A stretch of DNA of 64,000 nt from NCBI GenBank assembly GCA_041740355.1, contig JBGSMD010000063.1, forward strand, positions 142,612-206,611, read 5' to 3'. This stretch comes from Bdellovibrionota bacterium. GTDB taxonomy: Bacteria; Bdellovibrionota_C; UBA2361; CALJRW01. Under the pieces are notes generated by a model. The model saw only the letters and a list, made by a program, of their open reading frames with translations. It ran no database searches and had not been told where the DNA came from. The position numbers were made by a program, and so were the translations under genes. This document shows, piece after piece, positions 7,888-26,415 of the stretch. Each line of letters starts with the position of its first letter. Within the stretch, counting starts at the first letter, position 1.

Positions 7888-9693
7888 CTATAGGTTTTGT
7901 AGCTTACAATACTGGGCAAACCTTTCGCCTTTAGCAGTTAACTCTTCAAATGTTCCCACTTCTTGAATTCTTCCCTCTTCCAGAAAAACAATTTGGTCAG
8001 CGTTTCTGATTGTTACCAAGCGGTGAGCAATAATTATCACTGTTCTATCTGGCAGAATTGATTTCATAGCCAACTCTAAATTTCGCTCAGTTTCAGCATC
8101 AAGCGCACTTGTTGGTTCATCCAAAATAAGAATGTCAGGATTGGCAATAATAGCGCGAGCGATACAAAGTCTTTGGATTTCTCCACCAGAAAAATATGCT
8201 CCCTGCGTACCAACTTGGGAATCTAAACCCATGGGTAATTTAGCAATTAAGTCTTTTAGTTGCGCTTGTTCTAGTGACTTATTAAGTAATTCATTACTCA
8301 CCTCGCCCAAACCATAAGTAATATTGCCTCTAATCGTATCGTTAAATAACATTGCCTGCTGGCTAACAATTGCGATTTTTTTGCGATAGGTAGCTAATTG
8401 GAATTCCTTGATATCAATTCCATCAATCTGAATCCTGCCTGCTTGAGGATCATAAAAACGAGGGATCAAGTTCACTAAAGAAGTTTTACCAGCTCCACTT
8501 GGACCAACAATTGCAGTGATTTTATTAGCTGGGATAAATAAATTGATGTCCCGAACAATCTGAGTTTGTGTGTCATAGGAAAAATCAACTTTCTCAAATT
8601 GAATCCCAGCTTTCATAGTTGAGTATCTTTTATTTCCATCAATTATTGGATTAGGTTCTTGATAGTCTAAATAGTCGACGACTTTTTTTAGCATTGGCAT
8701 CTCGGCAACTGACTGCACGTAAGTCCCGGAGAGCTGTTGAATATTACTGACAAAACGTCTTAGGCTTACAAAGAAAACTAAAAGTCTACCAATTGAGAAA
8801 CTGGAAAAAGACAAGAAAACAAAAATACTAGCAGTAACCACTAAGAGCGTTCCTGCCGCATTAAAAACATCAACTATCGCTGGCACATAATAGCCTCGTA
8901 ACTTAACATTTGCTAAATTCTTGGAAAGTGAATTGGCATTCTTAGTAAACTTCTTAATTTCATTTCCCTGATTACAGGTTAACTGTACCAGGCCAATATT
9001 CCTAAAAACGTCATCAACTTGATTATTGATATCTAGTAAATTCTGCTCAGCATTCTGCGCTGAAATTTCTATTTTCTTGATAAAGAAATTAGTAATTAAG
9101 TGAATTGCTGGCAAAAGCAACAAGGCAATCAACGTTAACTGCCAAGAAATCATAAACATTAAAAACAGAAAAATTACCGAGAAAAACAATTGGGTAATAA
9201 TATTGGTGACATTATTATTCGTCCTTGAAACTGACCCTAGGAAGTTGGTTAATACCGTATTAATCTCGACTGCTTTTTGTTCCGCAAAAAATGAGCGCTT
9301 AATATTGATATACTTTTCAAAGATTTGCGTTCTTAGTTGAGAATTGAACTCTTTTTCAATCAAAATTGAAAAATAACGCCCTAAAAGCAATGTAATATTT
9401 TCCAGCACTACCGCCACAAAGATAATCGCTACCATTAATAAGAAAATATTATGGTTAGTTGGGGCAAATGGGAGGTTACGAATGAGTACACCAAGGACTG
9501 GGGCCGTCACAATCCCATAAAATTTAGTTTCATCAACTAAAGCGTTTAAAACTGGAATCACAAGTCCTAGTCCGAGCATCTGAAATACTGAAGCTAGGAG
9601 AATAAAGAAAATTCCGCCAACTAACAGACTGCGACTTACTTTTGCTTGTTTAAACAAGCTGAAAAATATGTTAAATAATTGAAAATATGACAA
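7888..9693 (-). CDS. MsbA/PglK-like ABC exporter (fused TMD and NBD)
   Basis: About 6 TM helices; GPSGAGKT, FSGGEIQRL, ILDEPTSALD, IAHRL. TTG start. Confidence 0.92.
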   Translation of the reverse strand: MSYFQLFNIFFSLFKQAKVSRSLLVGGIFFILLASVFQMLGLGLVIPVLNALVDETKFYGIVTAPVLGVLIRNLPFAPTNHNIFLLMVAIIFVAVVLENITLLLGRYFSILIEKEFNSQLRTQIFEKYINIKRSFFAEQKAVEINTVLTNFLGSVSRTNNNVTNIITQLFFSVIFLFLMFMISWQLTLIALLLLPAIHLITNFFIKKIEISAQNAEQNLLDINNQVDDVFRNIGLVQLTCNQGNEIKKFTKNANSLSKNLANVKLRGYYVPAIVDVFNAAGTLLVVTASIFVFLSFSSFSIGRLLVFFVSLRRFVSNIQQLSGTYVQSVAEMPMLKKVVDYLDYQEPNPIIDGNKRYSTMKAGIQFEKVDFSYDTQTQIVRDINLFIPANKITAIVGPSGAGKTSLVNLIPRFYDPQAGRIQIDGIDIKEFQLATYRKKIAIVSQQAMLFNDTIRGNITYGLGEVSNELLNKSLEQAQLKDLIAKLPMGLDSQVGTQGAYFSGGEIQRLCIARAIIANPDILILDEPTSALDAETERNLELAMKSILPDRTVIIIAHRLVTIRNADQIVFLEEGRIQEVGTFEELTAKGERFAQYCKLQNL

Positions 9694-10319
9694 ATTTGGC
9701 TACCAAAATAAAGACTGAAGCTAGTGCAAATATTAGTATTAATCGGTCTGCTTGTCTAAGGAGTATTTGGAATATCAGCTTAGCTACGCTCTTGCTAATC
9801 CTGTTTAGCCCAGTGATGTTAGCAATTTATCTAATACTTCTTACTACAAAAATTAAAAATCCAATTTTCAAACAAATTAGAGTCGGAAAAGATGGTCGTC
9901 ACTTTGTAATTTACAAATTTCAAACGATGTACGATGGTGTAACCAATTCAGGGCCATTTATCTGTGAATCTTATACTGACAATCGTATTACCCCGATTGG
10001 TCAATATTTAAGACGCAAGAAACTAGATGAAATCCCACAATTATTTAATATCCTTAAGGGTGACATGAATTTTGTTGGGCCCCGACCAGAAATTCCTCAT
10101 TTTCACCATGAAAACGTTTTAAAAATACCTAATTGGGCCGATCGTTTACTAGTTAAGCCTGGCATTACTGGTCCAGCGCAAATCCACCCAAAAGTTTCCC
10201 ATAACCCAGCAGAAAAGATTATTTTAGATCTAGAATATATTAATAACCGATCCTTCCTGTTAGATCTTAAGATTATTTGGAAAACTGCTTACTCTTGGCT
10301 AACTAGAAAGTCTCTTTAG
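9687..10319 (+). CDS. Priming sugar-phosphate transferase (Bac_transf family)
   Basis: FKQIRVGKDG, YKFQTM, LDEIPQLFNILKGDMNFVGPRPE, KPGITGPAQ. Confidence 0.93.
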   Translation: MTNLATKIKTEASANISINRSACLRSIWNISLATLLLILFSPVMLAIYLILLTTKIKNPIFKQIRVGKDGRHFVIYKFQTMYDGVTNSGPFICESYTDNRITPIGQYLRRKKLDEIPQLFNILKGDMNFVGPRPEIPHFHHENVLKIPNWADRLLVKPGITGPAQIHPKVSHNPAEKIILDLEYINNRSFLLDLKIIWKTAYSWLTRKSL

Positions 10320-11468
10320 TTTAATCTGAATCATAGCTCCTACTACATCTACACTGAATTTTTCTTGTATAAAACTAATCGCATTTCTTGAAAGCTCTTC
10401 TCCTAAGGCAGGATCTGTAAGAAGCTTTTGTATTTGATTAGCAAATTCTTCAGCCGAATCAGCAACTAATAATTCACAATCAATTTTGGCATTAATTGTC
10501 TTAGCTACTTCGGTTGTAACAACAGTGGGAACTCCAAGTGACATCCCTTCTAGTACTTTATTTGGTACTCCAAAGACAGACTTCAGTGGCACTACCACAA
10601 TTAATGACTCCGCAACTATATTTTCAATATTAGCGACTTCTCCCGTAAATGTCGTATTTTTTGAGCTATTAATTAATTCTTCAGTAGGACTCCGACCTGC
10701 TACCTTAAATATAATATTAGGGTTCTTTTTCAAAACTAAAGGCATTACTTCCCGATCAAAGAATTTTACTGCTTCGATATTAGGAGAATAATTCATTTGC
10801 CCCGTGAAAACTATTTGTGCCTGTTTAAGGATTGGATCTGTGGTTGGCATTCTTTCAATAACCTGAGGTAACACAAAAACTTGATCTAAGTTTACCTGTT
10901 TGGTTTGAAAGCGATCTAATTCTCTTTGGCTTATTATAGAAACCAACTCGGCAAAATCAATAATTTTTTCTTCGGCAGATTTAATTAGCTTTGCTTCTCT
11001 CTGGTAAAGCAATCGTTTCCACCAACTTGCGTCTTTGGCAAACCTTGCCCATTTTAAAGAATCAAAATCTATTAAATCCCAAAATACTTTAGTCTTATGC
11101 TTATGGAAAATCGGAATCAAGTAATCAAAAGCTGATGAAAAAACTACTACGAAGTCATAGTTTGTTGCTGTTAATTTTAGCTGAAGTGCTTTAACAAAAT
11201 CTGCGCTTTGAAAGTGCGCGCTACTAAAACTCTTATTAAGTAATAAGTTCTTGATCATCCTTGTAGCTGTACTTAGTTTCTTAATTTTAAATATTTGATC
11301 CTGACCAGGACTGAACTTTTCAAGGACTACTGCTTCCCGTGAATCTAAGCATATTAAATCGATTTCAAATTTTAAGTATTCAAAGATCTTAATAACCCGG
11401 TGAACTCTAATTCGATCTCCTTTATCATCCGGATAAGGATAGTTTGGACTAACTATTAAGATTTTCAT
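10299..11468 (-). CDS. GT4 glycosyltransferase, PEP-CTERM/XrtA-system type (TIGR03087-like)
   Basis: PYPDDKGDRIR, DLIDFDSLKW, FTGQMNYSPNIEAV, GVPNKVLEGM. Confidence 0.85.
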   Translation of the reverse strand: MKILIVSPNYPYPDDKGDRIRVHRVIKIFEYLKFEIDLICLDSREAVVLEKFSPGQDQIFKIKKLSTATRMIKNLLLNKSFSSAHFQSADFVKALQLKLTATNYDFVVVFSSAFDYLIPIFHKHKTKVFWDLIDFDSLKWARFAKDASWWKRLLYQREAKLIKSAEEKIIDFAELVSIISQRELDRFQTKQVNLDQVFVLPQVIERMPTTDPILKQAQIVFTGQMNYSPNIEAVKFFDREVMPLVLKKNPNIIFKVAGRSPTEELINSSKNTTFTGEVANIENIVAESLIVVVPLKSVFGVPNKVLEGMSLGVPTVVTTEVAKTINAKIDCELLVADSAEEFANQIQKLLTDPALGEELSRNAISFIQEKFSVDVVGAMIQIKLKRLSS

Positions 11469-12780
11469 TGTCCTTACTTGTAATATTTTTTAAGCTTATT
11501 GCTACAGTAACATAAAACCAAATTATCTCGGTGTGAAAAGTATTTACGAAAATGCTAGCTATTAAAAAGCCGATTAATCCAATCGGAATAAAACTTATAA
11601 TATTATCTAAGCGTTGTTCCGGGTACTTAATTCGAAGAATTTTTAAACTCGTGTAGTAATATTTAAAGCAAGTAAGAATAATCGCTAAAAATAAAAAAGT
11701 TCCTACAAATCCAATTTCTGCCAGAAGTTGAAAATACAAACTATGAACAGCTCTGTGTTCTCCATAAATACCATCACTAAAATCATATTCATGAAAGCGA
11801 TCCTGATATTTCTCAATTCCAACTCCCCAAATTGGGTTATCCGTAGCCATCAGCCAAGCAACCTTCCAGAAGTGAATTCTTGATTTACCAGATTCATCTT
11901 CTTCTGGCTTATTAAATAGTGTTGATATCCTAGCTTGAAATGAATCAATAGTCTGGCGAACAGGGTTGTCAGTTTGGAAATCACGATCAAAGGAGTACTG
12001 CTCTAAACTGATAAATTGATTAGTGTCATAGGCATAATAGCCGAAGATAGCTAACATTAATAAAAGTGGAATCAAAAGCTTAACTCTTATTTTTAATACT
12101 AACAGGATAATTACTGCTAACAAGGCCAGAAACCCACCACGGGAAAAAGTTAACATGATTGCTAGCGCTGTTCCGAAGGAAAGAAAAAGGCTAGCAAGCT
12201 TAAAGTACCAGCCTCGTGCTGAAAAAATTAATCCAATTGTTAAGGGTAATGCTCCGACAAGTACTGCTGCATAAATATTATTATCTCCAATTCTCCCTGT
12301 TCCGCTAATTGATTGTGAGCCAGCAAAGAGTCCGAATACTCCATAATAAAATGCCAAGAAACTAATAATTACAGTAACAAAGGAAATGTAATATTTTAAA
12401 TAAACACGATTAGGAATTACTATTGGACTAATGATTGCGACAAAAGCACTTTTTAAGAGAAATTCACTTGTATAGATCATAGCATTCCATGTTTGGCTAT
12501 GTTGAAAAGCCATGGAGAGCAGAATATGTACCAAAAATATTATTACCAACCAGGTCAGCGCATTCATGATAAATATTTTTTTATAATGCAAAAATGCGGT
12601 GACAACAAAAATAGCTCCAGCTATTAAGGAAAGCCTCGAACCTTCTAGGATTCCATATGTTAATTCCAAAGGTGAGAAAAAAGAGTACCAATGATAGAGT
12701 AGCATTCCCCAAAAAGGATTAAAGAGACTCGCGGTTGCTCCTAAACAGGTGAAAAGTACTACTAGGGAAGCTCGTAACAC
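11449..12780 (-). CDS. O-antigen ligase/Wzy-like membrane protein (exosortase-A-system type)
   Basis: About 10-12 TM helices; DNN, TFSRGGFL, SRIHFWKVA, NPIWGVG, AVHSLYFQLLAEIGFVG (Wzy_C motifs). Confidence 0.85.
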   Translation of the reverse strand: MLRASLVVLFTCLGATASLFNPFWGMLLYHWYSFFSPLELTYGILEGSRLSLIAGAIFVVTAFLHYKKIFIMNALTWLVIIFLVHILLSMAFQHSQTWNAMIYTSEFLLKSAFVAIISPIVIPNRVYLKYYISFVTVIISFLAFYYGVFGLFAGSQSISGTGRIGDNNIYAAVLVGALPLTIGLIFSARGWYFKLASLFLSFGTALAIMLTFSRGGFLALLAVIILLVLKIRVKLLIPLLLMLAIFGYYAYDTNQFISLEQYSFDRDFQTDNPVRQTIDSFQARISTLFNKPEEDESGKSRIHFWKVAWLMATDNPIWGVGIEKYQDRFHEYDFSDGIYGEHRAVHSLYFQLLAEIGFVGTFLFLAIILTCFKYYYTSLKILRIKYPEQRLDNIISFIPIGLIGFLIASIFVNTFHTEIIWFYVTVAISLKNITSKDNENLNS

Positions 12781-12838
12781 CTAAATAACTCCCAACTTAA
12801 TAACTTCTTTGTTGCTTATAAGAATATAAAGATTTGTT

Positions 12839-13243
12839 TTAGTTCTCACGATAGATTTCTTGAAAGTTGCTTTGACTAAAGTCAATTATTTGTCCTTGAT
12901 CTTCAAGCCAGGCGTGAGCTTGGAACCCAGACTCTTGGTTAACCCCTAGTTTGATTTCCAAATTAGGGAAGGTATTTTTAAAAACCGTAAAAATTGCCAA
13001 CGTCCAAACTAAGCAATTACTAAAAATTTCAAAAGTTGTATATATTCGATAAGTTAAATCCTGCAAAGCCTCAAACGAATATGCCTGTTTAGTAGTTTTC
13101 CGGGATATAATTCGAAACACACTTAACGTCTGTTGATAGCTAATAAGCTTAAGTGAAACTTTGATTAGCAAGGCGAAAAATAGCAGTCTGATTAGCAACT
13201 GCTTCTCAGGGAAGTTCCAAAAGTTTCTGATAAAACTGGTCAT
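12839..13243 (-). CDS. Lasso peptide biosynthesis B2-like protein (transglutaminase-like cysteine peptidase)
   Basis: 134 aa; NCLVWTLA (catalytic Cys) and LGV...FQAHAWLE (His, acidic residue), typical of Transglut_core3. Confidence 0.85.
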   Translation of the reverse strand: MTSFIRNFWNFPEKQLLIRLLFFALLIKVSLKLISYQQTLSVFRIISRKTTKQAYSFEALQDLTYRIYTTFEIFSNCLVWTLAIFTVFKNTFPNLEIKLGVNQESGFQAHAWLEDQGQIIDFSQSNFQEIYREN

Positions 13244-13359
13244 CTGATTTTATTAATAAAGAATACTAAAGTCTGAGAAGTAGCGTAAAAGAGAAGTTGC
13301 TTTTTTGACTCTTAATATGATGCTATGCTTTTCTTAACTTTCTGGACATATTAAAAACA

Positions 13360-13644
13360 ATGCTTATTAACTTAAACAGTAAAATTGACCCCATTTCAGG
13401 AGTACACGTAAGCCAACTAAGTGATTCTGCGGTAGCACTCAATTTAAATAATGAAAATTATTATGGGTTAAATCCCACAGCTTTTAAAATGTATCAAACC
13501 TTAATTGCCAGTAAGGATATAAGCGAAGCCCTAGATCAGCTAAGTGCTGACTTTTTAGTAGCGGAGGAAGAGCTAAAAACAGATCTACTAGATCTAATTA
13601 CAGAACTAGAAACTAATGGCTTAATTTCAATTAGCCTAATTTGA
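13360..13644 (+). CDS. PqqD-family RiPP recognition element (lasso B1-like)
   Basis: 94 aa; VALNLNNENYYGLNPTA...DLLDLITELETNGLI matches the PqqD/RRE pattern. Its stop overlaps the next start (TTGA). Confidence 0.9.
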   Translation: MLINLNSKIDPISGVHVSQLSDSAVALNLNNENYYGLNPTAFKMYQTLIASKDISEALDQLSADFLVAEEELKTDLLDLITELETNGLISISLI

Positions 13645-15227
13645 ATAGTTTTCTCTTTCTTCAATCAACCCGAATTAAGGACTGGCAAGAATTAATTGCT
13701 AGTGGAGTTCCTACTTACCAAAATTCTAATACTGCTATTTATTCTGAGCAACTACAAAAAACGCAAAATGGTTTTGTGGTTATTAATTCACCTATTAATA
13801 AAGTTTTAAGCACAAATGATTTAAGCTCCTTTGCTATTCATGACCCATCCTTTCTAATTGGACTAGAAGCTGCAATTCTAAGTTACGATTCTGTAACTCA
13901 AAAAACATTGATTGCCCGTGATTTTCCAGGTACTGAAACGATCTATTACTACCACACTAGTGAAGATTTAATAATTTCTGATAATTTCAAAGCTTTCCAA
14001 GATCTAAAACTAACAAAAGATTTATCAAAACTAAAAACCCTGGAATATCTCACTGCTGAATTTTCCAATTCCAACTTAACTCTTTGGGAAAAGATTTTAA
14101 AAGTTCTTCCTGGTGAAATTATTGAATTTGAGAATTTCCAAATCAAATCAAAAACTAAGTTACACCCAAAAGATCTTTTAAATTTAGCTCCCAGTAAGGC
14201 TGATTTAAACCAAACACTACAGCACTCTCTCCAGAAATATCATCCTCAAATTAACGCCGAACTTAGTGGTGGACTAGATTCCATGACACTAGCCGACTTA
14301 ACTTGGAAATTACTCGGCTCAGAGTCACTCAAAAGTTACTCGATCCTATTTCCTGAAATGATTTGTGATGAAACTTTGCAAATTAATAACTTCTTACAAC
14401 TTCGACCTCATCATAATCAAAAATTAAATTTTTCAATAATTGAGGCTAAGGAACTTCAAGCCTTAGCTTCAAAGATTGCTTACTTTCCTGATTATCCAAA
14501 CAGCCTCTCCTCTGTCAGCTATCTTAAGAACTTGGCCAACAAAAACCAGGAAATATTAATTGATGGTTTTGGAGGTGATCAATTATTTAATCTCTGGAAA
14601 ACAAAAAAAGAATTTACTAGTTTTGACTATTTAAAATCAAAGTTATTAAATGATTTAAAGCTGCGAAAAATATTTAGAAAAAGAGTTTTCCCGTGGATTA
14701 ATATTAATGCTGAGTGTCAGCTTCTGACTCATTTAAATTCTCATTCAGAAATTTATCCTAAAAATCTTAAGACTCATCAACTAGCAATGTTACAGCAGTT
14801 ATTTTCTTCTGATTTTTCTGAGTATTTAGAATCTGCCTGTTTAGTTGCCAAAGCGCATGGTGCTTACCGTAGCCATCCCTATCTTCGCAAAGAAATAATC
14901 TCATTAGCTTTAAATCTTAACCTTAATGATTTAGCCAAGAAGCGTTTCTTGGGTAATAATCTTCAACAATCATTAGGTGCGAACTGGAAAGGGGCTAAAA
15001 AAGCTGACTTTTCAGAAACATTTATAGCTTACGCCCAACTACCAGATTACCTTCAAATGATCCTAAATGCTAAAAATCGCTTTAAAGAACTAATTGACCT
15101 GCAATCATTTAAAGATTTAGCGCATCTTAAAAATCGTTCTAGCAAACAAGTACTTGTAAACTGGAACCTGATTGGGTTAGAAATGATTATAGCTTCAAGC
15201 CACACTAATAACCTGAATTCGACATAG
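13641..15227 (+). CDS. Asparagine-synthetase-like protein / lasso cyclase (C) homolog
   Basis: ARDFPG, ELSGGLDS PP-loop, DGFGGDQLF, HPYL. No N-terminal catalytic Cys. Coupled to the PqqD gene. Confidence 0.8.
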   Translation: MNSFLFLQSTRIKDWQELIASGVPTYQNSNTAIYSEQLQKTQNGFVVINSPINKVLSTNDLSSFAIHDPSFLIGLEAAILSYDSVTQKTLIARDFPGTETIYYYHTSEDLIISDNFKAFQDLKLTKDLSKLKTLEYLTAEFSNSNLTLWEKILKVLPGEIIEFENFQIKSKTKLHPKDLLNLAPSKADLNQTLQHSLQKYHPQINAELSGGLDSMTLADLTWKLLGSESLKSYSILFPEMICDETLQINNFLQLRPHHNQKLNFSIIEAKELQALASKIAYFPDYPNSLSSVSYLKNLANKNQEILIDGFGGDQLFNLWKTKKEFTSFDYLKSKLLNDLKLRKIFRKRVFPWININAECQLLTHLNSHSEIYPKNLKTHQLAMLQQLFSSDFSEYLESACLVAKAHGAYRSHPYLRKEIISLALNLNLNDLAKKRFLGNNLQQSLGANWKGAKKADFSETFIAYAQLPDYLQMILNAKNRFKELIDLQSFKDLAHLKNRSSKQVLVNWNLIGLEMIIASSHTNNLNST

Positions 15228-15278
15228 GAATTCAAACACTTTGCTTATCTCGTAACGAATCTTAGGTCGAACTCAGGT
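15211..15278. mobile_element. 68-bp MITE-like element with IS982-like terminal inverted repeats
   Basis: Left end ACCTGAATTCGAC versus reverse complement of right end ACCTGAGTTCGAC (12/13, weaker pairing further in). TAATA direct repeat on both flanks (15206-15210, 15279-15283). The IS982 assignment rests on recalled AC-terminal TIRs. Confidence 0.6.
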
Positions 15279-15305
15279 TAATAAAATTTAATATTTACTT
15301 TAACT

Positions 15306-15620
15306 ATGTTTATAACTAACACTGAGTTTATCCCCGGAAAGCAAATTGTAACAATGTTTGGACTTGTTTCTGGAAGCACGGTGAGATCAAAGCACGTTGG
15401 CAAAGATATTTTTGCGGGTTTAAAAAATATTGTTGGTGGTGAACTAAAAGCTTATACTGAGCTACTAAGTGAATCTCGAGAAGAAGCGACAGCCAGGATG
15501 ATCGCTGAGGCAAAGGATCTAGGTGCAAATGCTGTAGTTAATGTTCGTTATTCAACTTCCTCAGTTGCAGCTGGAGCTGCCGAACTTTATGTTTATGGCA
15601 CTGCCGTTTTTGTAGAATAA
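15306..15620 (+). CDS. YbjQ/UPF0145 family protein
   Basis: GKDIFAGLKNIVGGELKAYTELL...REEA...GANAVVNVR...YGTAV. Confidence 0.93.
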   Translation: MFITNTEFIPGKQIVTMFGLVSGSTVRSKHVGKDIFAGLKNIVGGELKAYTELLSESREEATARMIAEAKDLGANAVVNVRYSTSSVAAGAAELYVYGTAVFVE

Positions 15621-15622
15621 AA

Positions 15623-16066
15623 ATGGAATTTATCATCCTAGCAGTTCTATTTTTTTCAGGTCTAATCTTTGGCACTCTTAATGAGCGTAAACATTATCGT
15701 TCAATTCACAAACGGGAAGCTGAATTAATTCAGAAACCAATTATTACTTTTGGGAAAAACTATAATCCTGAGTATCAAGATTATCATGGCGAGTTAGTCT
15801 CAGCGAATGTGGTAATTTCAATTGATTACTTTAAGAAATTTGTAGCTAATATTTCTAATCTAATAGGTGGAAGACTTGTTAGTTATGAAACGCTCTTAGA
15901 TCGTGCTCGCCGGGAAGCAATCCTACGCCTCAAAGAATCATGTCCCGAAGCAGATTTAATTATTAATACACGTCTGGAAACTTCTTCTATTACCCAAGCT
16001 GGCAAGAACTCAGTTTCCTGTGTTGAAGTTTTAGCCTTTGGAACAGCTTTATATCGTGTTAATTAA
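15623..16066 (+). CDS. Membrane-anchored YbjQ-family protein
   Basis: N-terminal TM; DYFK...GGRLVSYETLLDRARREAILRLKE...EVLAFGTA. Confidence 0.85.
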   Translation: MEFIILAVLFFSGLIFGTLNERKHYRSIHKREAELIQKPIITFGKNYNPEYQDYHGELVSANVVISIDYFKKFVANISNLIGGRLVSYETLLDRARREAILRLKESCPEADLIINTRLETSSITQAGKNSVSCVEVLAFGTALYRVN

Positions 16067-16068
16067 TT

Positions 16069-20388: not shown

Positions 20389-20447
20389 GTTATTAATTTA
20401 GTAAAATAACGAATGGTAATATTTATAAATATGGATATAATAATCTG

Positions 20448-20648
20448 ATGCGCTTTAAAGATTTTAATTCACCTAATCAACATGGAGCTTCACTATTAGA
20501 GTATTCTATTCTTATTGCACTTATTGCACTTGTTGCATTTGGGGCTGTGACCTATTTTGGGGATCAGAATAAAGACTCCCTGGAAAACTCAGCTGAGTGC
20601 ATTAGAGCAGCAACTAATGGCGAACCAATTACTCCTGAATGCCAATAA
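20448..20648 (+). CDS. Flp-family type IVb pilin
   Basis: 66 aa; G|ASLLEYSILIALIA prepilin cleavage site with E+5/Y+6; hydrophobic helix; two C-terminal Cys. Confidence 0.85.
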   Translation: MRFKDFNSPNQHGASLLEYSILIALIALVAFGAVTYFGDQNKDSLENSAECIRAATNGEPITPECQ

Positions 20649-20683
20649 TAATTTGAGATTTGAACCACTTCTAATTTTTATAT

Positions 20684-21556
20684 TTGCATGTGTTTAAATA
20701 CTCTCTTGCCAATCTAACGCTAAGTTCTGATTTGGAGATTAACTATCTACCTGCCACCACTAAGCCTAAAATTGATTTAGAAATAAAATTTCAAAAATTC
20801 AATAGGCCCGAGAACCTTACCCCCTATCATTCTTGGTTAAACGATGATTTATCAAAACGTTTAAACTTTTACCAAGACAAGAACGTCTACTATCTTGAGT
20901 ATCCTGATTTAATTTCATTTTGCATTTCCGACAATCAAATCCTCTGTGAAAAAGTAATTACCGAAGACTATCATTACCTCCATCTTTTAACAGACCAGGT
21001 AATTCCTCTTTACATAAGCCTCACAACCCTAGTGCTTCACGCCTCAGCCTTCTCCTACCAAGATTATCAAATAATTTTACTAGGAAAGTCAGGCTCAGGA
21101 AAATCAACTTTAGTCAGTAAGTTATACCCACTTGGTAAATTTATTTCCGATGATTTTCTACCAATAAAATTTAACGAAGATATTCCTCAATTAATTCCAA
21201 CTTATCCTGGGATTAGGCTGATTGGAGAGAGGGAGCAGAAAAAAGTGACTTCCGTTAAAGAAAAAGATTTTGCTCATTTGCAAGAAACAAAAAATATTGT
21301 GATTGTTTACCTAGACCGAGATTATACAATAAAGCCACAAGATTATAATCTCTCCACTACCAAACCAAATGAAGTGTACCAACAATTACTTACTGAACTT
21401 GTCCAACTAGCTTCAAATGATAAATTGAAGTTACTAGATACCTTTACTCAACTAAATCAATTTATTAGGAAATATCAACTTATGAAACTATCGTACTCTG
21501 ACTTAACTAGAGTAAATCTCGAAGCTTTGGTAATAAAGTTAATTTATAAAGATTAG
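20684..21556 (+). CDS. HPr-kinase-related kinase (lasso-cluster K-type)
   Basis: LVLHASA, GKSGSGKST Walker A, ISDD. Lacks the N-terminal DRTGG domain of true HprK. Confidence 0.8.
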   Translation: MHVFKYSLANLTLSSDLEINYLPATTKPKIDLEIKFQKFNRPENLTPYHSWLNDDLSKRLNFYQDKNVYYLEYPDLISFCISDNQILCEKVITEDYHYLHLLTDQVIPLYISLTTLVLHASAFSYQDYQIILLGKSGSGKSTLVSKLYPLGKFISDDFLPIKFNEDIPQLIPTYPGIRLIGEREQKKVTSVKEKDFAHLQETKNIVIVYLDRDYTIKPQDYNLSTTKPNEVYQQLLTELVQLASNDKLKLLDTFTQLNQFIRKYQLMKLSYSDLTRVNLEALVIKLIYKD

Positions 21557-21565
21557 AATTACAGA

Positions 21566-22675
21566 TTACTGAACTTTCCTTCTATAAAAAGGTTTTTCAC
21601 AAACTAGATAGAATAAATAACAACCAACTAAAGTTATAGATAAGCTAATCAGATTAAACATAATAGTATTTTCTGATATCACTTGACGCACAAAAATTTC
21701 AACTAACAATAATAACTTGGCATGAATAAGGTATATTGAATACGAAAATAGTCCTAATAAATTAAAGGTTGTGACAATTATATTTCGCTTAGAAAGTAAA
21801 TTAATATATCTTAACTCAAAACTTTCGACTAACCATATTAAGATAGCAAAAAACCCGGCAAACAATACTGGAGAAACTTGATCAATATTAAACAATAAGT
21901 AGATAAGAATACTTGTGATAATACAAAATAGTATTTGAAAAAAATTTTTGTAGATTTCATAAGTACTTGGTTTTATTTTGTTATAAAACAATGTATTTAT
22001 AAGAATACCTATTGCAAAGAAATGCCAATAATACACAAATAAGCCAGACAAATGATATTCTTGTAAGAAAGCAACTGCAATAATTGATATTGCAGTGACT
22101 ACTGCTAGGAATAAATAAATTCTAGTTTTTAAGCATAAACCAATAAACATTATTAAATAAAACTGCATCTCGATAGCAAGCGACCAATAAACACTATTAA
22201 TCGGATTAAATTTATCTGATAGCCATTGTCGATCTAATGGAGAGTCAAATATTTTGACAAGTGAAATTGTTTTAACCCATTCAAAGAAGGAAAATTGTAG
22301 ATATTCATAGGACTGGGCCTCAATAGTAAATGGAGAGATATACTTACCTGTCTTAAAACTACTAATAAATTCAATTATGAATGGTATGATTGCAACAAAA
22401 ACTATAGAAAACCAAAAAGTGACATAAATACGTTTTGATCTTCTAAAAATAAACATATATGGCTTTTCATTTGATGCAATTGACTGCCTAAGTGATGACA
22501 TCACACAATAACCAGAGATTATAAAAAACATTTGAACTCCAAGGCTACCATTAGAAAAAAGATTCTCTAGAAATGGAAAGAAGTTCTTAAAGCTACTGTT
22601 CCAAGATAGGTGAAAAGTAAAAACCCATAGAGCAGCAAGTCCACGAAAAGCATCGAGAATATTAAATTTCATCAA
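21566..22675 (-). CDS. Acyltransferase-3 (OafA-like) membrane O-acyltransferase
   Basis: LDAFRGLAA, GVQMFFIISGY, YWSLAIEMQFY, SYSIYLIH, EKP. Confidence 0.92.
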   Translation of the reverse strand: MMKFNILDAFRGLAALWVFTFHLSWNSSFKNFFPFLENLFSNGSLGVQMFFIISGYCVMSSLRQSIASNEKPYMFIFRRSKRIYVTFWFSIVFVAIIPFIIEFISSFKTGKYISPFTIEAQSYEYLQFSFFEWVKTISLVKIFDSPLDRQWLSDKFNPINSVYWSLAIEMQFYLIMFIGLCLKTRIYLFLAVVTAISIIAVAFLQEYHLSGLFVYYWHFFAIGILINTLFYNKIKPSTYEIYKNFFQILFCIITSILIYLLFNIDQVSPVLFAGFFAILIWLVESFELRYINLLSKRNIIVTTFNLLGLFSYSIYLIHAKLLLLVEIFVRQVISENTIMFNLISLSITLVGCYLFYLVCEKPFYRRKVQ

Positions 22676-22756
22676 GCGTTGTCTCTTCTCAAATCAAGAA
22701 ATCTTATTTACTGTATTCAAAAAATTATTTAATGGCATATACAAATACTTAATTTC

Positions 22757-24349
22757 TTAATCGTTACTAGCAATTTTATACAACTCCAAACCCTCTGGAT
22801 CAAACTTGTACCTGTTATGATAGGGGAAAACCTTCTCTAATTTATAATTTGGATTATTAGGTAATAAATTGATCAAATCAAAATGATGCTTTTCAGGGAA
22901 TTGAACATCGACGGTTTTATCAACTATCACCCAGTTAATTTCATTGTCAATAAGCATGGACTCCAGCTCGCTTAAATTTTCATATTTTGCATTATAGCTA
23001 CTACCAGACCAATTTACATTTGAAAGAAGCTTGTCGGATCTAATTAAGGACCTATTATTACCTAAACTAATATTAGCAAACTCTACAATCATGCCACCTT
23101 GGCCAAATGGGTCCGAAGCTATTAATATTTTATCGTCAATAATTGATTCTTTTTCTAAATACTGCACTACGCTCTGACTTCCTTGAATCCTTTTAATATA
23201 AAAATCGAAATTATTAGAACTGTAAACTCCTGTAAAAAAAGCAGTAAATATTAGGATTGAAGTAATACTCTTCCGCCTTATATCTAAAGACTCAAATCCA
23301 ATTACTAGGACAAGAAGCAACATTGGAATCAGAACAACATAATGTCTTATAACTGTCCCGGTAGGTATAAAAAGGTGAAAAGCTATATAAGAAAATATTC
23401 CCATTAAAACAATATAAAGGATGACTTCCTTATCTTTATTTACTTCCTGTAGATCTACTTGTGTACGCTTTAAAACTGGTAAATAATTTAACAGTGCTAA
23501 GAGAAAAATTAGAACTACTAATGAGACGGATAATTGGTCTGTAATAAATAAGAAGATATTTTTCAAAGAATATATAGCATATTTTGTAATATCTTCCTCC
23601 ACTGACCACCCTAGGGAACGATATTCTTTAGTATAATGATACCATAGAAATGTAAATATAACGGGAGGTAGAAAACAAGATACTAAATTCTGCTTTCTAA
23701 GATCTTTAAATGAAATGTACCTAACTAGAACCAAAGGAATCCATAAATAAACAAATAAAAAATTTCCTTTAGTTAAAGAACCAACTGTAACAACAAGCGA
23801 TAATAAAAAGGTACTGAACGCTGATTGCCCCTTTATAAAATTCAAGAGCAGTATAATTACTAATGTGACTTCTAATTCAATTAAATGGTCTAACATGAAT
23901 GTAGCCATCTGCTTCTGCCACTCAAATACAAGCAGAAGTAATATTGGTAAGATTAGGGCTAAAAATAAATTGGTAACCTTTGAAAGTAGATAAAATGTAC
24001 AGTGCAAAATTCCAGCAGCAATGAGGCATTGTAAAAACATCATCTTTGCAATGCTAGCACCAAAAACTAATCCATAAAGTGACGCACCTAAGTAAAATGC
24101 GGGTGGCCAATTTCCAAGTCCAATCTTAGGATAATGCAAATAGAAATCTTGAAAAAAGTGTAATGGATTCGCTGGAAAACTAGATCCAAAATACTTAATA
24201 AACATAAGTACTGTTAAATAGTGTGCAGGTTCATCAGATGTAGCGCCTAGTTCAGAAGAAAAAGCATTCGCATAGAAATTCACTATCGAAATAACTAGTA
24301 AATAAACTAAAAAAATAATGAAGTATCTAATAATCTTCTGATTATTCAT
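22757..24349 (-). CDS. ArnT/PMT-like GT-C membrane glycosyltransferase
   Basis: Polytopic; SDEPAHY after TM1, WPP.FY, LTKG, RH; C-terminal soluble domain. Confidence 0.7.
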   Translation of the reverse strand: MNNQKIIRYFIIFLVYLLVISIVNFYANAFSSELGATSDEPAHYLTVLMFIKYFGSSFPANPLHFFQDFYLHYPKIGLGNWPPAFYLGASLYGLVFGASIAKMMFLQCLIAAGILHCTFYLLSKVTNLFLALILPILLLLVFEWQKQMATFMLDHLIELEVTLVIILLLNFIKGQSAFSTFLLSLVVTVGSLTKGNFLFVYLWIPLVLVRYISFKDLRKQNLVSCFLPPVIFTFLWYHYTKEYRSLGWSVEEDITKYAIYSLKNIFLFITDQLSVSLVVLIFLLALLNYLPVLKRTQVDLQEVNKDKEVILYIVLMGIFSYIAFHLFIPTGTVIRHYVVLIPMLLLVLVIGFESLDIRRKSITSILIFTAFFTGVYSSNNFDFYIKRIQGSQSVVQYLEKESIIDDKILIASDPFGQGGMIVEFANISLGNNRSLIRSDKLLSNVNWSGSSYNAKYENLSELESMLIDNEINWVIVDKTVDVQFPEKHHFDLINLLPNNPNYKLEKVFPYHNRYKFDPEGLELYKIASND

Positions 24350-24422
24350 AATTTAATGATTAAAGGCTCTATTTGAATAGTAATAATGATATTAAGTTTT
24401 TAAAAATATAAATTTCCAATAT

Positions 24423-25424
24423 TTATACTTCCTTAGTATGACGACTGTATACATTCTTCAAGTATTTTTGTGCAGGCTTTTCAATTAAATAACAAATTGC
24501 CGTGGCTAAACTTAATGATACTACTGTTGCAAATATAATTCCGATTGATGGATTTAAACCCAAACTATAGGAATACCGAATAATCATGTAGCCAATATTC
24601 TGATGTATTAAATAAAGTGGATAAGAAATTGTTCCCAAAAAAACTAATGGTTTGATAGATAAAAACTTAAGCTTTCCTAAAGCAGCGAGCAATACAACTA
24701 TGCTAATTAAGATTAGCGATAAAGCAATATAGTTTGAATATTTTAGAAGAATTGCAAAAAAACTCATGATGACAACTGAGACTACCCACTTGTTTATTAA
24801 ATTTTGTTTAATTTTATAAAAACAAATTCCAAGAGCAAAAAATTGTATATATTGTAATAAAAAAAATGCCTTAACTTTATTATTAATATCAAAGTTGAAT
24901 CTATGGTAGATTAATATACAGCTAATAATAATCCATAAGAATAAATAACTTTCGATATTTTCTTGTCTTTTAAAATAGAAAAGACAACCCATCCAAAAAT
25001 AGAAAGCCAACTCAAGTGTCAATGTCCAATAAACTCCATCGACGTGAGGATAGGAAAAATAATCCTGCAACATCGTAAAGTTTAGGATCAAATCAATAAG
25101 TGAAACATTATGATTAGGAAGACCTATCAGTAAAAGACATATAAATGTAAGTATTACTGTCGCCCAATAGCCTGGAAATAACCTCGCAAATCTAGAGAAT
25201 AAAAAGTCACTTAGTTGTTGGCTGTTTGATAAAGTCCAAAAAATAACAAAGCCACTGATAATAAAGAAAAGCTCAACTCCGTAACGACCAAATTTTAGAA
25301 ACTCTGGAAAATTAAAACTATGCTTATAATATTCATTATAGATGAAGAAATAATGATATATTAGCACAGAGATAGCTGCTATTCCCCTTAAGCTATCAAG
25401 CTCTAATAATCTCTTATTTTGCAT
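24423..25424 (-). CDS. Acyltransferase-3 (OafA-like) membrane O-acyltransferase
   Basis: LDSLRGIAA, GVELFFIISGFVI, RFARLFP, YWTLTLELAFY, SYPLYLIH, IEKP. Confidence 0.93.
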   Translation of the reverse strand: MQNKRLLELDSLRGIAAISVLIYHYFFIYNEYYKHSFNFPEFLKFGRYGVELFFIISGFVIFWTLSNSQQLSDFLFSRFARLFPGYWATVILTFICLLLIGLPNHNVSLIDLILNFTMLQDYFSYPHVDGVYWTLTLELAFYFWMGCLFYFKRQENIESYLFLWIIISCILIYHRFNFDINNKVKAFFLLQYIQFFALGICFYKIKQNLINKWVVSVVIMSFFAILLKYSNYIALSLILISIVVLLAALGKLKFLSIKPLVFLGTISYPLYLIHQNIGYMIIRYSYSLGLNPSIGIIFATVVSLSLATAICYLIEKPAQKYLKNVYSRHTKEV

Positions 25425-26415
25425 TATCTCTATTAAAAATAAATCTTATATATTTAGTTATAAATATCTTACAAATACTATGTTTACTATTTAAATCTGG
25501 TCCAAAAGGTAATAAATATCGATAAGCTAAATTTTTTAATTTATTAGAAAAAGTATTATATTTAATAATGTTATGTATCTCGTTAAATCTACTATGACTA
25601 TCTGTTTTATGAATTGGCTGCACTTTATTGTTAAAGAATTCATTATAGAAATCTAGGGTCTGAGTTAATATCTTATTAAGCTGATACTTATCAGCTAACT
25701 CTACTAACTTTTGAAAATCGACTATGCTTCTTTGAAGAATTACATCAAGATCTATAAAATTCTGTGCTTGCATCCAATTATTTTTATAGGAATGAATCGC
25801 TAACAAAAGAACTTGATACTCCCAGTTCAAATCAACCTCATAGTGCTTTTGCTTTATAGTCTCCGTATGCTTCCAATAATCTAAACTAAACTCAGGATTA
25901 CAAATAAATACTTCTGCTAATTTCCAGTGTAAATCCAATTCTACACCGGATTCAAGATGAACTAACGTTATGGAATGATTAATAAAGAGTTCCAGTCTTT
26001 TTTTACATCCAGTAAAAGAAAAATCAGCTTTCCATCCATGTTCTTGTAGTAATTTTAATGCTAAGTCTAGATCCTTAGCCTCTACTAAAAAATCTATGTC
26101 TTTGATGTCGCGAAATTGGGAATACTCTGGATATTTTTCTATCAAATAAAGACCTTTAATTGTCTTAAAAGGGATTTGATGTTTATTTAAAAGATCTATT
26201 ACGTCAGCTGCACTTATCAATAGTAGTTCTTTTAAGGCTCTAGCAATGAATGCTTCCTCAATAAGCAAAACATCATTTTTCATTAATAAAATCATGTGAG
26301 CAAGAGATATTATTTTATTCTTAATAAGAAATGACTTAAAGATTGATCGATCGACAAAACCTTCTTGATATTTTTCTATTAAATTTACAAATTTTACATC
26401 TTCAAATTGGGTCAT
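25414..26415 (-). CDS. Nucleotidyltransferase family protein (NTP_transf_5; type found in lasso clusters)
   Basis: IKGLYL, R..KDIDFLV, VELDLHW, later helical D-L motif. Confidence 0.82.
   Translation of the reverse strand: MTQFEDVKFVNLIEKYQEGFVDRSIFKSFLIKNKIISLAHMILLMKNDVLLIEEAFIARALKELLLISAADVIDLLNKHQIPFKTIKGLYLIEKYPEYSQFRDIKDIDFLVEAKDLDLALKLLQEHGWKADFSFTGCKKRLELFINHSITLVHLESGVELDLHWKLAEVFICNPEFSLDYWKHTETIKQKHYEVDLNWEYQVLLLAIHSYKNNWMQAQNFIDLDVILQRSIVDFQKLVELADKYQLNKILTQTLDFYNEFFNNKVQPIHKTDSHSRFNEIHNIIKYNTFSNKLKNLAYRYLLPFGPDLNSKHSICKIFITKYIRFIFNRDNAK

Follow-up and report, generated by a model that had tools for sequence, protein, structure and literature searches.

The window analysed here is a stretch of 64,000 nucleotides from a draft Bdellovibrionota genome (G000; 74 contigs, 97% complete, 3,272,965 bases), for which the original prediction had described five lasso-type maturation genes (B2, RRE, cyclase-like, kinase and NTP_transf_5) and an ABC exporter, dispersed through a surface-glycan locus. 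An ORF check of the window recovered all six reported ORFs at their coordinates, and their family assignments were confirmed. In the following, A denotes the precursor, B1 the PqqD-type RRE, B2 the leader peptidase, C the cyclase, K the HPr-kinase-like kinase, N the NTP_transf_5 protein and MT the methyltransferase. The features of the locus are as follows:

7888..9693, minus strand, ABC exporter, permease plus ATPase (ABC_tran and ABC_membrane, Pfam)
9687..10319, plus strand, Bac_transf, small polyprenyl-phosphate sugar-phosphate transferase (2.7e-55)
10299..11468, minus strand, GT4 glycosyltransferase, stp1-like (TIGR03087, 223.5 bits, cut-off 316.65)
11449..12780, minus strand, Wzy_C protein of the O-antigen ligase / polymerase / O-glycosylation ligase family (Wzy_C 8e-22, DUF5935)
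12839..13243, minus strand, B2, lasso leader peptidase (NF033537, Transglut_core3)
13360..13644, plus strand, B1, PqqD-type RRE (PqqD match)
13641..15227, plus strand, C, AsnB-like macrolactam cyclase of a divergent short subfamily (Asn_synthase)
15306..16860, plus strand, two YbjQ genes and an M48 peptidase (Pfam)
16857..18401, plus strand, 514-aa polytopic membrane protein, possibly GT-C (Atlas neighbours)
18535..20388, plus strand, secreted right-handed beta-helix protein (Beta_helix 6.6e-9)
20448..20648, plus strand, Flp/Fap-like pilin ORF, 66 aa (Flp_Fap 3.2e-4, below cut-off)
20684..21556, plus strand, K, HPr-kinase-like lasso tailoring kinase (family profile)
21566..25424, minus strand, variable cassette between K and N: Acyl_transf_3, PMT_2-like GT-C (22757-24349) and a second Acyl_transf_3 (Pfam)
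25414..26415, minus strand, N, NTP_transf_5 nucleotidyltransferase-fold protein (NTP_transf_5)

The leader peptidase exceeded the cut-off of the NCBIfam lasso B2 model NF033537 (42.1 bits, cut-off 33) and matched Transglut_core3 of Pfam at 8.4e-9, and its Cys77 and His110 were invariant in an alignment of 11 B2 proteins. B1 matched PqqD of Pfam with 41 bits (cut-off 23.4) and stayed below the cut-offs of the lasso-specific PqqD models of NCBIfam (38.6 against 70 bits and 32.3 against 80 bits). C matched Asn_synthase of Pfam (39.3 bits, cut-off 21), and the PP-loop ELSGGLDS is invariant across its subfamily, for which a profile search of 1.84 billion proteins returned 7 matches at <=1e-30. Against the curated lasso cyclase model C scored 57 bits (cut-off 525), equal to its score for generic asparagine synthase (58.5 bits). 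Lasso cyclase was the best NCBIfam family for 16 of the 25 relatives of C that were scanned, and none of the 25 reached the curated cut-off.

The sequence of K alone gave weak P-loop and HprK_rel_A matches, the latter with 24 bits against a cut-off of 200. With a profile of its 19-member family, the best PDB matches were four HPr kinase structures (E 1e-7 to 3e-6). His119, Lys140 and Asp156 are invariant in this family and Asp157 is at least 90% conserved; His-Lys-Asp-Asp is the motif that the available text of PMC9266682 reports for lasso kinases. N was well above the NTP_transf_5 cut-off (96.4 bits, cut-off 31.2, Pfam), with no match among solved structures. The best NCBIfam matches of the ABC protein were HepA (416 bits, cut-off 725) and MsbA, none of which reached its cut-off, and it shares 24-29% identity with the lasso-adjacent ABC proteins of relatives versus 35-41% with paralogues in its own genome. 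It could serve as D, the exporter of the lasso pathway, or flip a glycan instead.

The 3,272,965-base genome has a single copy each of Transglut_core3, Asn_synthase, NTP_transf_5 and the K-like gene, and two of PqqD, as counted in a draft assembly whose gaps may hold a second copy. Since the B2, PqqD, C, K and N genes of the window all lie inside 13.6 kb, their grouping is more than chance.

No precursor had been seen in the window, and a distant or a non-canonical substrate had been offered as alternatives. We searched the 34,158 small ORFs of the genome with a precursor HMM, and this genome-wide scan for a lasso leader gave a sole match (E 1.3e-28; next best 0.82), so that the window indeed lacks a precursor. 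The matching ORF, of 51 aa, is located on a separate contig, at least about 100 kb from the window (G000:C9:51321-51476), and has a canonical YxxPxL...T-x leader. It (L016:10322-10477) exceeded the curated cut-off of NF033521 lasso_leader_L3 (25.1 bits, cut-off 19) and fell just under that of NF033528 (31.2 bits, cut-off 33). A second PqqD gene lies upstream of it and the only PRMT-like methyltransferase gene of the genome downstream. The probable substrate is thus distant, as had been proposed, but it is an ordinary lasso precursor, which speaks against a non-canonical one.

Between G000 and its sister species of the same genus (G001), identity is 91% for the precursor and 53% for the neighbouring PqqD. 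The PqqD proteins of the window and of C9 are genus-specific paralogues (clade support 96/94). The predicted core is FGGSMAADFFGMQT, with an F1-D8 lactam; since it is short (14 residues, 6 of them beyond the ring) and carries Phe at position 1, a threaded topology is not assured. Its C-terminal residue is Thr in G000 and Phe, Met and others in relatives.

The wider family search gave 22 loci, and the comparison was counted over 22 organisms in 18 lineages. With Thr placed at -2, 19 of the 22 sequences, which were inspected by eye, have the core acid at position 8 or 9; K adjoins the precursor in 21 organisms, and N homologues adjoin the lasso system in nine. In three other Bdellovibrionota genera from the class of G000 (G063/G064/G065, G092 and G088), a homologous precursor directly adjoins K and C. 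The contiguous gene sets comprise B2, B1, C, K and A in G063 and G065, C, ABC, B1, A, MT and K in G088, and ABC, K, A, C, MT and N in G092.

Considering the genus-specific PqqD paralogues and the position of the precursor beside K and C in other genera, the window is probably the maturation half of a lasso-peptide cluster, the precursor gene of which has moved elsewhere in the genome. From the copy numbers and the paralogy, we infer that the window enzymes would act in trans on the C9 precursor. In such a pathway, one or both RREs would bind the YQKPKL...LTK leader and B2 would cleave after Thr-Lys, whereupon the AsnB-like enzyme would adenylate Asp8 and close the F1-D8 macrolactam on the core. 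K may phosphorylate a hydroxyl, perhaps on Ser4 or on the C-terminal Thr, further groups may come from N and the methyltransferase, and the product would be exported by an ABC transporter.

The B1/B2/C/K/N set had been likened to that of paeninodin and pseudomycoidin. This comparison holds, with the proteins within, or nearest to, lasso families. Like the window, the clusters of paeninodin (Paenibacillus dendritiformis) and of ThcoK/SyanK, which make phosphorylated lasso peptides, have split B1/B2, C, an ABC exporter and an HPr-kinase homologue with the His-Lys-Asp-Asp residues. According to the available parts of PMC8498205 and PMC9266682, characterised lasso kinases require a C-terminal Ser, whereas the G000 core ends in Thr and those of its relatives in Phe or Met. 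Unlike in those systems, the G000 precursor is unlinked, with its own duplicated RRE and an accompanying PRMT-like methyltransferase, the lasso genes of the window are interleaved with glycan genes, and the host belongs to Bdellovibrionota rather than Firmicutes or Proteobacteria. The pseudomycoidin cluster (Bacillus pseudomycoides), which makes a phosphoglycosylated lasso peptide, shares K and the nucleotidyltransferase-fold N with the window; again, the G000 core lacks the C-terminal Ser. In the portions available of the same two papers, pseudomycoidin N puts one or two hexoses on the phosphate (PMC8498205, PMC9266682), and Firmicutes clusters have N between B2 and D or fused to B2 (PMC8498205). 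In contrast, the window N lies 12 kb from B2, behind the variable acyltransferase/GT-C cassette. A remote gene has a precedent in citrulassin, whose tailoring deiminase is encoded outside the cluster (PMC8498205, in the part available), although the remote genes here are the precursor, a spare RRE and the methyltransferase.

The interleaving with glycan genes was borne out by Pfam for Wzy_C, GT4, Bac_transf and the two Acyl_transf_3 genes; GT-C status is indirect. The 514-aa membrane protein had no Pfam or NCBIfam match, and PMT_2 on 20-35% of the members of its Atlas neighbour clusters is a lead. The 530-aa GT-C of the cassette between K and N matched a PMT_2 protein encoded next to lasso genes in a Verrucomicrobiota MAG (E 3e-24). 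Across the 22 organisms, counting Bac_transf, Wzy_C, Wzz/Wzc, Wza, GT-C and GT2/4, glycan-assembly genes flank the lasso system in 12, representing 8 of the 18 lineages and several phyla (raw counts). The original prediction was to be abandoned if a conventional precursor came together with no conserved linkage to polysaccharide genes in relatives; the conventional precursor was found, but so was a recurrent linkage.

It is possible, though doubtful, that this adjacency is incidental, a mobile lasso cluster having landed in a fast-changing glycan locus and been split there by insertions; that the product is just a secreted, tailored lasso peptide of the ordinary kind, without a glycan link, is similarly doubtful. 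Polysaccharide loci often acquire genes, and GC drops to 0.29-0.32 in the 20-36 kb part of the window. Inserted among the lasso genes are genus-specific genes present in no other locus, namely the YbjQ/YbjQ/M48 insert, restricted to G000 and G001, the beta-helix gene, conserved in G001, and the Flp-like ORF. Moreover, the interval between K and N differs between the two sister species, being occupied by GT4 and methyltransferase genes in G001, and ten of the 22 organisms, among them G088 from the same phylum, have no glycan genes nearby. However, the adjacency repeats in the lineages mentioned above, and three glycan genes have been kept in two Bdellovibrionota genera, which is hard to square with independent landings. 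The Wzy_C/GT4/Bac_transf trio also adjoins A and K in G064, whose genus belongs to a different family within the class, and its proteins are 31-53% identical to those of the window: 37% over 460 aa for the Wzy_C protein, 31% for the GT4, which in G064 is placed between Wzy_C and Bac_transf, and 53% for Bac_transf. The window Bac_transf shares 46% with the lasso-adjacent copy of G063, versus 34-42% with its own-genome paralogues. The whole 3.27 Mb genome has four Bac_transf and three Wzy_C genes.

The same trio also favours a peptide-glycan conjugate, i.e. a glycosylated lasso peptide or a surface polymer primed or capped by the peptide, which we nevertheless regard as unlikely. Bac_transf and GT4 would assemble a short undecaprenyl-phosphate-linked glycan, the ABC transporter would flip it, and the Wzy_C protein, or K and N together, would couple it to the lasso peptide. 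O-oligosaccharyltransferase activity is known among Wzy_C enzymes, and O-linked protein glycosylation pathways use a Wzy_C-family oligosaccharyltransferase of the PglL/PilO type. As a parts list from genes alone, the window resembles such pathways in its initiating phosphoglycosyl transferase, GT4, ABC transporter and Wzy_C protein, although the latter scores nearest TIGR03097, below its cut-off (145.4 bits, cut-off 188.1). Further neighbours point the same way. Wzy_C is directly next to the lasso system in an Anaerolineales MAG and some 2 kb off in a Vicinamibacterales MAG. L052 has Glycos_transf_4 alongside C and L051 has PMT_2 alongside the methyltransferase, with a homologue of that PMT_2 protein between the window's K and N, and Wzc-like, Bac_transf and two GT2 genes directly adjoin the lasso genes of G092. 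G037 carries, beside PqqD and a K-like gene, a fusion of an NTP_transf_5 domain with a peptidoglycan transglycosylase domain, and the pseudomycoidin K and N can place hexoses on a phosphorylated lasso peptide (PMC8498205, available text). On the other hand, the adjacency is missing in the ten organisms noted, the glycan genes vary by lineage with no one enzyme always present, and Ser4 is the only conserved Ser/Thr acceptor in the Bdellovibrionota cores.

That no lasso ring is formed at all appears improbable. C would then be an amidotransferase of PEP-CTERM-type polysaccharide loci, and PqqD, B2, K and N a cyclase-free peptide-modifying set of the HprK-related/PqqD kind. C does match the XrtA/PEP-CTERM amidotransferase model TIGR03108 (E 4.4e-9), the locus contains PEP-CTERM-type GT, ligase, FemAB, chain-length and tyrosine kinase genes, and no C was seen within the stretches read of G036 (PqqD, a K-like gene, B2 and part of N) and G037. 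HprK-related kinases A and B, which have a PqqD partner, occur near exosortase loci; their models were matched by all 19 K-family members (TIGR04352) and by 18 of the 19 (TIGR04355) at E <=0.01, always far below the 200-bit cut-off. Here, however, a cyclase and a lasso precursor are part of the set, and a search of the genome for an exosortase found none. In addition, C begins with MNSF and therefore lacks the Cys nucleophile, and Pfam finds no GATase in its N-terminal domain, so that it cannot use glutamine. Its start overlaps the end of B1 by 4 bases, its nearest relatives score best as lasso cyclases, and its homologues adjoin the precursor in G063, G065, G088 and G092. That the enzymes act on a non-canonical substrate from the locus itself, for instance the Flp-like pilin, is highly improbable: this ORF holds the precursor's place in relatives, in the gap upstream of K, and has a 68-aa orthologue at the same place in G001, but it has no YxxPxL leader, did not score with the precursor HMM and has four other genome matches at E <=2e-10 plus a marginal one (8.4e-4), and its G-ASLLEY motif is typical of ordinary prepilin processing.

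For the maturation half of a relocated lasso cluster, the preferred reading, the glycan surroundings may still matter. A minimal glycan pathway, made up of a phosphoglycosyl transferase, a GT, an ABC transporter and a ligase-type Wzy_C protein, surrounds the lasso system here, and in relatives the two are recurrently neighbours. We therefore read the lasso-glycan adjacency as a real functional link, which may lie in common regulation, in common sugar donors or in peptide glycosylation.

The ORFs named in the original prediction were confirmed at their positions, and family profile searches placed them as candidate lasso-type maturation genes and a fused exporter.

Maturation and export genes in the window (coordinates, strand, description)
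7888-9693, minus: fused ABC exporter (profile search)
12839-13243, minus: leader peptidase B2, Transglut_core3 family (42.1 bits with the NCBIfam lasso B2 model NF033537, cut-off 33)
13360-13644, plus: PqqD-type RRE B1 (passes the Pfam cut-off of the PqqD family and stays below those of the lasso-specific PqqD models)
13641-15227, plus: AsnB-like putative cyclase C, Asn_synthase family (4-base overlap between its start and the end of the PqqD gene)
20684-21556, plus: HPr-kinase-like protein K (weak P-loop and HprK_rel_A matches with the single sequence)
25414-26415, minus: NTP_transf_5 protein N (96.4 bits, cut-off 31.2)

Cys77 and His110 of B2 were invariant among the 11 sequences aligned. 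Profile searches also identified the genes interleaved with or flanking the toolkit, which encode a Bac_transf protein, a stp1-type GT4, Wzy_C, two YbjQ proteins, an M48 peptidase, a 514-aa membrane protein, a beta-helix protein, two Acyl_transf_3 proteins and a 530-aa membrane protein. Among these, the two YbjQ genes and the M48 metallopeptidase gene (15306-16860, plus strand) are located downstream of the cyclase gene in the same orientation, separated by 2-78 bases, and this insert was observed only in this genus among all loci compared. In the whole genome (G000; 3.27 Mb, 74 contigs, 97% complete), there is one copy each of Transglut_core3, Asn_synthase, NTP_transf_5 and the K-like gene and there are two copies of PqqD. 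Because these families are so sparsely represented, the clustering of the toolkit genes in the window is not due to chance.

Farther along the window, wza, chain-length, tyrosine-kinase and PEP-CTERM-type FemAB-like genes were found, all below equivalog cut-offs; the matches of the locus to TIGR03087, TIGR03097, TIGR03019, TIGR03007 and TIGR03018 were each below cut-off. A PEP-CTERM/exosortase locus was considered and rejected, as no Exosortase_EpsH was found by profile search of the 97% complete genome and the glycosyltransferase, ligase and FemAB matches do not reach equivalog level. One protein with a PEP-CTERM domain is encoded on a different contig (C4), approximately 6 kb from another Wzy_C gene. 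An ORF for an IS200-like (Y1_Tnp) transposase (63013-63978, minus strand) was noted close to where the window, and with it contig C63, ends.

The original prediction had described a toolkit with no visible precursor. Within the window this holds, but the puzzle itself disappears at the level of the genome, where an ordinary precursor is encoded elsewhere. The second PqqD gene of G000 is located on contig C9, and directly downstream is a 51-aa ORF, MYNKSMEDKKTDESKKEKKTYQKPKLIKYGSLKELTKFGGSMAADFFGMQT. It scored 25.1 bits with NF033521 (“lasso RiPP family leader peptide-containing protein”), above the cut-off of 19, and 31.2 bits with NF033528, just short of the cut-off of 33. The ORF has the YxxPxL...T(-2) leader and a core acidic residue within positions 7-9 that are typical of lasso precursors; with the conserved Thr set at -2, the predicted core is FGGSMAADFFGMQT with Asp8, and this rule gives F1-D8 as the predicted ring. 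The genome-wide scan for short ORFs with a lasso leader, which had been proposed as a check, returned this one conventional precursor: when an HMM of five homologous precursors was used to search the 34,158 ORFs of 20-120 aa in G000, the C9 ORF was the single match (E value 1.3e-28; next best 0.82). The genes 3' of it encode a PRMT/PrmA-like methyltransferase and then a 1753-aa protein (L016:11817-17078) that looks like two tandem UvrA units. The start of such a double UvrA-like protein was also seen at the same place in the sister species G001 (L018:3-212, contig C60), and it could be unrelated to the peptide.

The precursor is thus not encoded beside its maturation genes in G000, the former being on C9 and the latter on C63. 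On the 153-kb C9, the shorter distance from the precursor to a contig end is 51 kb, and on the 206.6-kb C63 that from B2, B1 and C is approximately 49 kb, so that contig geometry places the two loci at least ~100 kb apart. The same arrangement was found in G001, whose precursor is also on a contig other than that of its B2, B1 and C genes. Between the two species the precursor peptides are 91% identical and the flanking PqqD proteins 53%.

Several observations connect the two loci. First, B2, the AsnB-family gene and the lasso-type precursor each occur once in G000. Second, in a maximum likelihood tree of 18 PqqD sequences, the window B1 and the C9 PqqD grouped together, each with its G001 orthologue (support 96/94), and the PqqD proteins of other Bdellovibrionota fell outside this group. 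Therefore, the RRE was duplicated within this genus; one copy remained with B2 and C and the other moved with the precursor. Third, homologous systems are contiguous in other Bdellovibrionota genera of the same taxonomic class, with the precursor beside the maturation genes: B2, B1, C, K, precursor and Bac_transf in G063 and G065; C, ABC, B1, precursor, methyltransferase and K in G088; and ABC, K, precursor, C, methyltransferase and N in G092. The C9 peptide and the precursors of these relatives have in common the motif ...Y-x-K-P-x-[LI]...G...L-T-x-F-G-G-S...D-F-F-G. In addition, structure prediction of the window B1 (13-row alignment) in complex with the C9 precursor (5-row alignment) gave a score of 0.57 compared with 0.01 for the best control, with at least 86% of contacts agreeing between runs and a partner pLDDT of at least 55. 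This lends weak support. In calibration, the mark was passed by 116 of the 157 solved pairs and by 2 of the 215 mismatches, and in the range up to 0.60 by only 18 of the 157 and by both mismatches; since RRE-leader complexes have already been solved, the pass may reflect likeness only.

Two further observations were made around the precursor position. Just upstream of K, where relatives carry the precursor, the window contains a 66-aa Flp/Fap-like pilin ORF (20448-20648, plus strand) with a G-ASLLEY motif and, close to its C-terminus, two conserved Cys residues. G001 has an orthologue of 68 aa in the corresponding position, and elsewhere in the genome of G000 there are four more matches at E values of 2e-10 or better and one marginal match. 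At two of the loci compared (L046:10111-11295 and L054:10144-11331), the precursor and K are separated by a gene for a protein of approximately 395 aa that ends with a PqqD domain, preceded by some 320 uncharacterised residues; the normal B1 is present as well. Thus, a second RRE beside the precursor recurs outside the genus in a different form.

To define the wider family, the precursor alignment was used for a pattern search of one genome per species. Of 67 matching stretches, 25 were confirmed, representing 22 loci: five re-finds (G001, G088, G065, G063 and G064), two loci of Spirosoma that were set aside and 15 others. With G000 and G092 added, the comparison set comprised 22 organisms. 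The two Spirosoma loci (L053 and L059; 33-aa ORFs with the leader pattern) were regarded as chance matches, as no lasso gene was detected in a search of all their ORFs or by Pfam on 10 ORFs of L053. The 15 other loci are from members of Chloroflexota, Acidobacteriota, Verrucomicrobiota, Planctomycetota, Nitrospirota and Atribacterota, from one gammaproteobacterium and one deltaproteobacterium, from a MAG labelled Methanobacteriaceae and from MAGs that are unclassified. Across the set, a K-family gene adjoins the precursor in 21 of the 22 organisms, the PRMT-like methyltransferase is present in 11 and N in nine. The family leader reads YxKPxL..G..LT-x, and setting Thr at -2 places the first core acid at position 8 or 9 in 19 of the 22 sequences (exceptions being L056, L058 and L060). 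At L060 (7455-11184), the same leader type was observed beside a PqqD protein, a radical SAM/SPASM enzyme and a K-like gene, with no sign of an AsnB-like cyclase. A second, non-lasso RiPP class may make use of this leader family. In the Methanobacteriaceae MAG (L048:9935-13294, on a 2.5-Mb contig), the precursor, a K-like gene and an AsnB-like cyclase are located between genes for very large adhesin-like proteins. As the record is labelled archaeal, this is either an archaeal lasso-type system or a mis-binned contig.

The assignment of C was examined by several approaches. The protein begins with MNSF and hence does not have the N-terminal Cys of glutamine-using enzymes, and it keeps an ELSGGLDS PP-loop. 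Its scores with the lasso cyclase model NF033535 (57 bits, cut-off 525) and with generic asparagine synthase (58.5 bits) were similar. When a profile of the two sister C proteins was searched against 1.84 billion representative sequences, 2147 matches were obtained at 1e-3 or better, 77 at 1e-10 and only seven at 1e-30; therefore, the close C subfamily (~520-545 aa) is very small. Of the 150 hits listed by this search, 25 were scanned against NCBIfam. The top-scoring family was NF033535 in 16 cases (five of the six subfamily members, 11 of the 19 longer proteins) and asparagine synthase or XrtA amidotransferase in the other nine, and none reached the cut-off of 525 bits. No lasso cyclase among solved structures was matched by C, the hits being hydroxyamidotransferase, AsnB, CarA and beta-lactam synthetase. 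Related-locus searches found no relative among genome contigs when the C-like protein was the query, nor among metagenome contigs when P0004, one of the closest metagenomic relatives of C, was the query, and a word-based homologue search returned the query itself and the sister-species copy only. C is thus regarded as a putative member of the cyclase family because of where it is encoded, because it has the PP-loop and no nucleophilic Cys, and because of its nearest relatives, rather than by a curated threshold.

With regard to K, matches of the single sequence to solved structures were at chance level, whereas a profile of 19 K-family proteins retrieved HPr kinase structures as its top four hits in PDB (E values 1e-7 to 3e-6). 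HprK_rel_A was matched by all 19 members and HprK_rel_B by 18, every score being below cut-off. His119, Lys140 and Asp156 of K were invariant and Asp157 was at least 90% conserved among the 19 sequences, so that K, like the kinases of paeninodin/pseudomycoidin-type clusters, is an HPr-kinase homologue with the His-Lys-Asp-Asp motif that has been described for lasso kinases (PMC9266682). The characterised lasso kinases are reported to act on the C-terminal Ser of the linear precursor (PMC8498205, PMC9266682). Such an acceptor is not present here: the core ends with Thr in G000 and G001, Phe in G063, G064 and G065, and Met in G088. Across the relatives the last residue is Phe, Met, Val, Leu, Lys, Pro or Ser, the last of these only in G092 and L045. 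In the Bdellovibrionota cores, no hydroxyl other than that of Ser4 (FGGS motif) is conserved.

An NTP_transf_5-type N protein is also a feature of paeninodin/pseudomycoidin-type clusters and is present here as the single copy in G000; a sequence search of solved structures gave no match to it. Parts of this gene set were also observed at two further loci. In G037 (contig C14, L066:11077-13146), a single protein combines NTP_transf_5 with a peptidoglycan transglycosylase (Transgly) domain; it is encoded next to PqqD and a K-like gene, and the stretch read contains no cyclase. In G036 (contig C35, L065), PqqD and B2 occur together with a Transgly protein and a K-like gene. Thus, K, N and PqqD are tied to enzymes of lipid-linked glycans in places where no lasso cyclase accompanies them.

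The original prediction had named conserved linkage to polysaccharide genes in relatives as a point to check, and this part of it held up: membrane glycan-assembly genes were found within the stretches read in 12 of the 22 organisms, or 8 of 18 lineages when close kin were collapsed. In G064 the order is Wzy_C, GT4, Bac_transf, precursor and K, and the first three products are 37%, 31% and 53% identical to those of the window. Therefore, the same trio has been kept beside the system in two genera of different families of the class. An additional Wzc-like gene and an ABC gene are present in G065, and in G092 a Wzc-like gene, Bac_transf and two GT2 genes are directly beside the block of ABC, K, precursor, C, methyltransferase and N. 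In other phyla, B1 is next to Wzy_C in an Anaerolineales MAG and next to Wzz in a relative of that MAG; C has Glycos_transf_4 as its neighbour in L052, and in a Verrucomicrobiota MAG the methyltransferase gene lies beside PMT_2. PqqD of L060 is directly next to Poly_export (Wza-type), and the system of a Vicinamibacterales MAG is flanked by Wzy_C, a Wzc-like gene and Bac_transf. Two more organisms (L049 and L056) have sugar-nucleotide genes only, and eight lineages, two of them represented by contigs shorter than 6 kb, have no glycan genes. For scale, G000 contains four Bac_transf and three Wzy_C genes in 3.27 Mb. The Pfam scan covered 153 of the 185 listed ORFs (74 + 79), and glycan genes among the other 32 would be missed (six of L042, already scanned as L037, all 13 of L059, two of L053, one of L055, six of L058, one of L060 and three of L061). 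The enrichment is therefore indicative rather than measured, with the counts in G000 as its only background.

The 530-aa protein encoded between K and N in the window is homologous to the PMT_2 protein of the Verrucomicrobiota MAG (E value 3e-24). No significant similarity was detected between the 514-aa window membrane protein and the PMT_2 protein of L051, or between the window beta-helix protein and the pectate-lyase-like protein of L054. K and N are separated by two acyltransferases and the PMT_2-like GT-C in G000 (window 21566-25424) and by a GT4 and a methyltransferase in G001 (L014:1574-3475); the segment looks like a swappable glycan-modifying cassette.

Based on these gene contents, a pathway can be proposed. 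The leader would be bound by one or both RREs, B2 would cut after Thr-Lys, and C would close the F1-D8 ring in an ATP-dependent reaction. K would phosphorylate the peptide, N and the methyltransferase would add further decoration, and the product would be exported. The glycan genes may take part through shared regulation, as a source of sugar donors for N, or in glycosylation of the peptide via Bac_transf, GT, ABC and Wzy_C. The original prediction had gone further and proposed a peptide-glycan conjugate. The recurrent linkage does not refute such a conjugate, although its existence is unproven. In its full form, K, N, PqqD and the lasso enzymes would make up a module joining a ribosomal peptide to an undecaprenyl-linked glycan: the phosphorylated lasso peptide would receive a glycan from the adjacent Bac_transf/GT/ABC/Wzy_C set, or prime it, and the product would be a surface peptide-phospho-glycan conjugate. 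This reading is suggested by the recurrent adjacency in several phyla and by the NTP_transf_5-transglycosylase fusion in G037; we consider it rather unlikely. If true, the conjugate would represent a class of RiPP-glycan hybrids that is new.

Among characterised systems, the paeninodin, ThcoK/SyanK and pseudomycoidin clusters come closest; they have B1/B2/C/D, K and N in common with the system described here. Unlike them, the present system has an unlinked precursor with a duplicated RRE, no C-terminal Ser, a PRMT-like methyltransferase and a conserved glycan-gene neighbourhood, and occurs in another phylum. The citrulassin deiminase (PMC8498205) is a precedent for a remote pathway gene. Among the papers listed, judged by titles and abstracts, no remote lasso precursor was found, and subscription-only papers and supplements may bear on this point. 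Listings and abstracts likewise yielded no association of lasso and glycan loci, no cross-talk between lasso peptides and surface polysaccharides, no report on a lasso kinase together with an arginine methyltransferase, and none on such a cluster in Bdellovibrio.

These results imply that a RiPP cluster can look orphaned to genome miners when its precursor, a duplicated recognition protein and a methyltransferase have moved at least ~100 kb from the enzymes, and search tools based on neighbourhood only would miss this product. A lasso family spanning many phyla is defined here, and the C-terminal-Ser rule of the characterised kinases does not hold in this family. Moreover, the repeated adjacency of glycan genes offers a concrete case in which cross-talk of a ribosomal peptide with the synthesis of surface polysaccharide can be tested.
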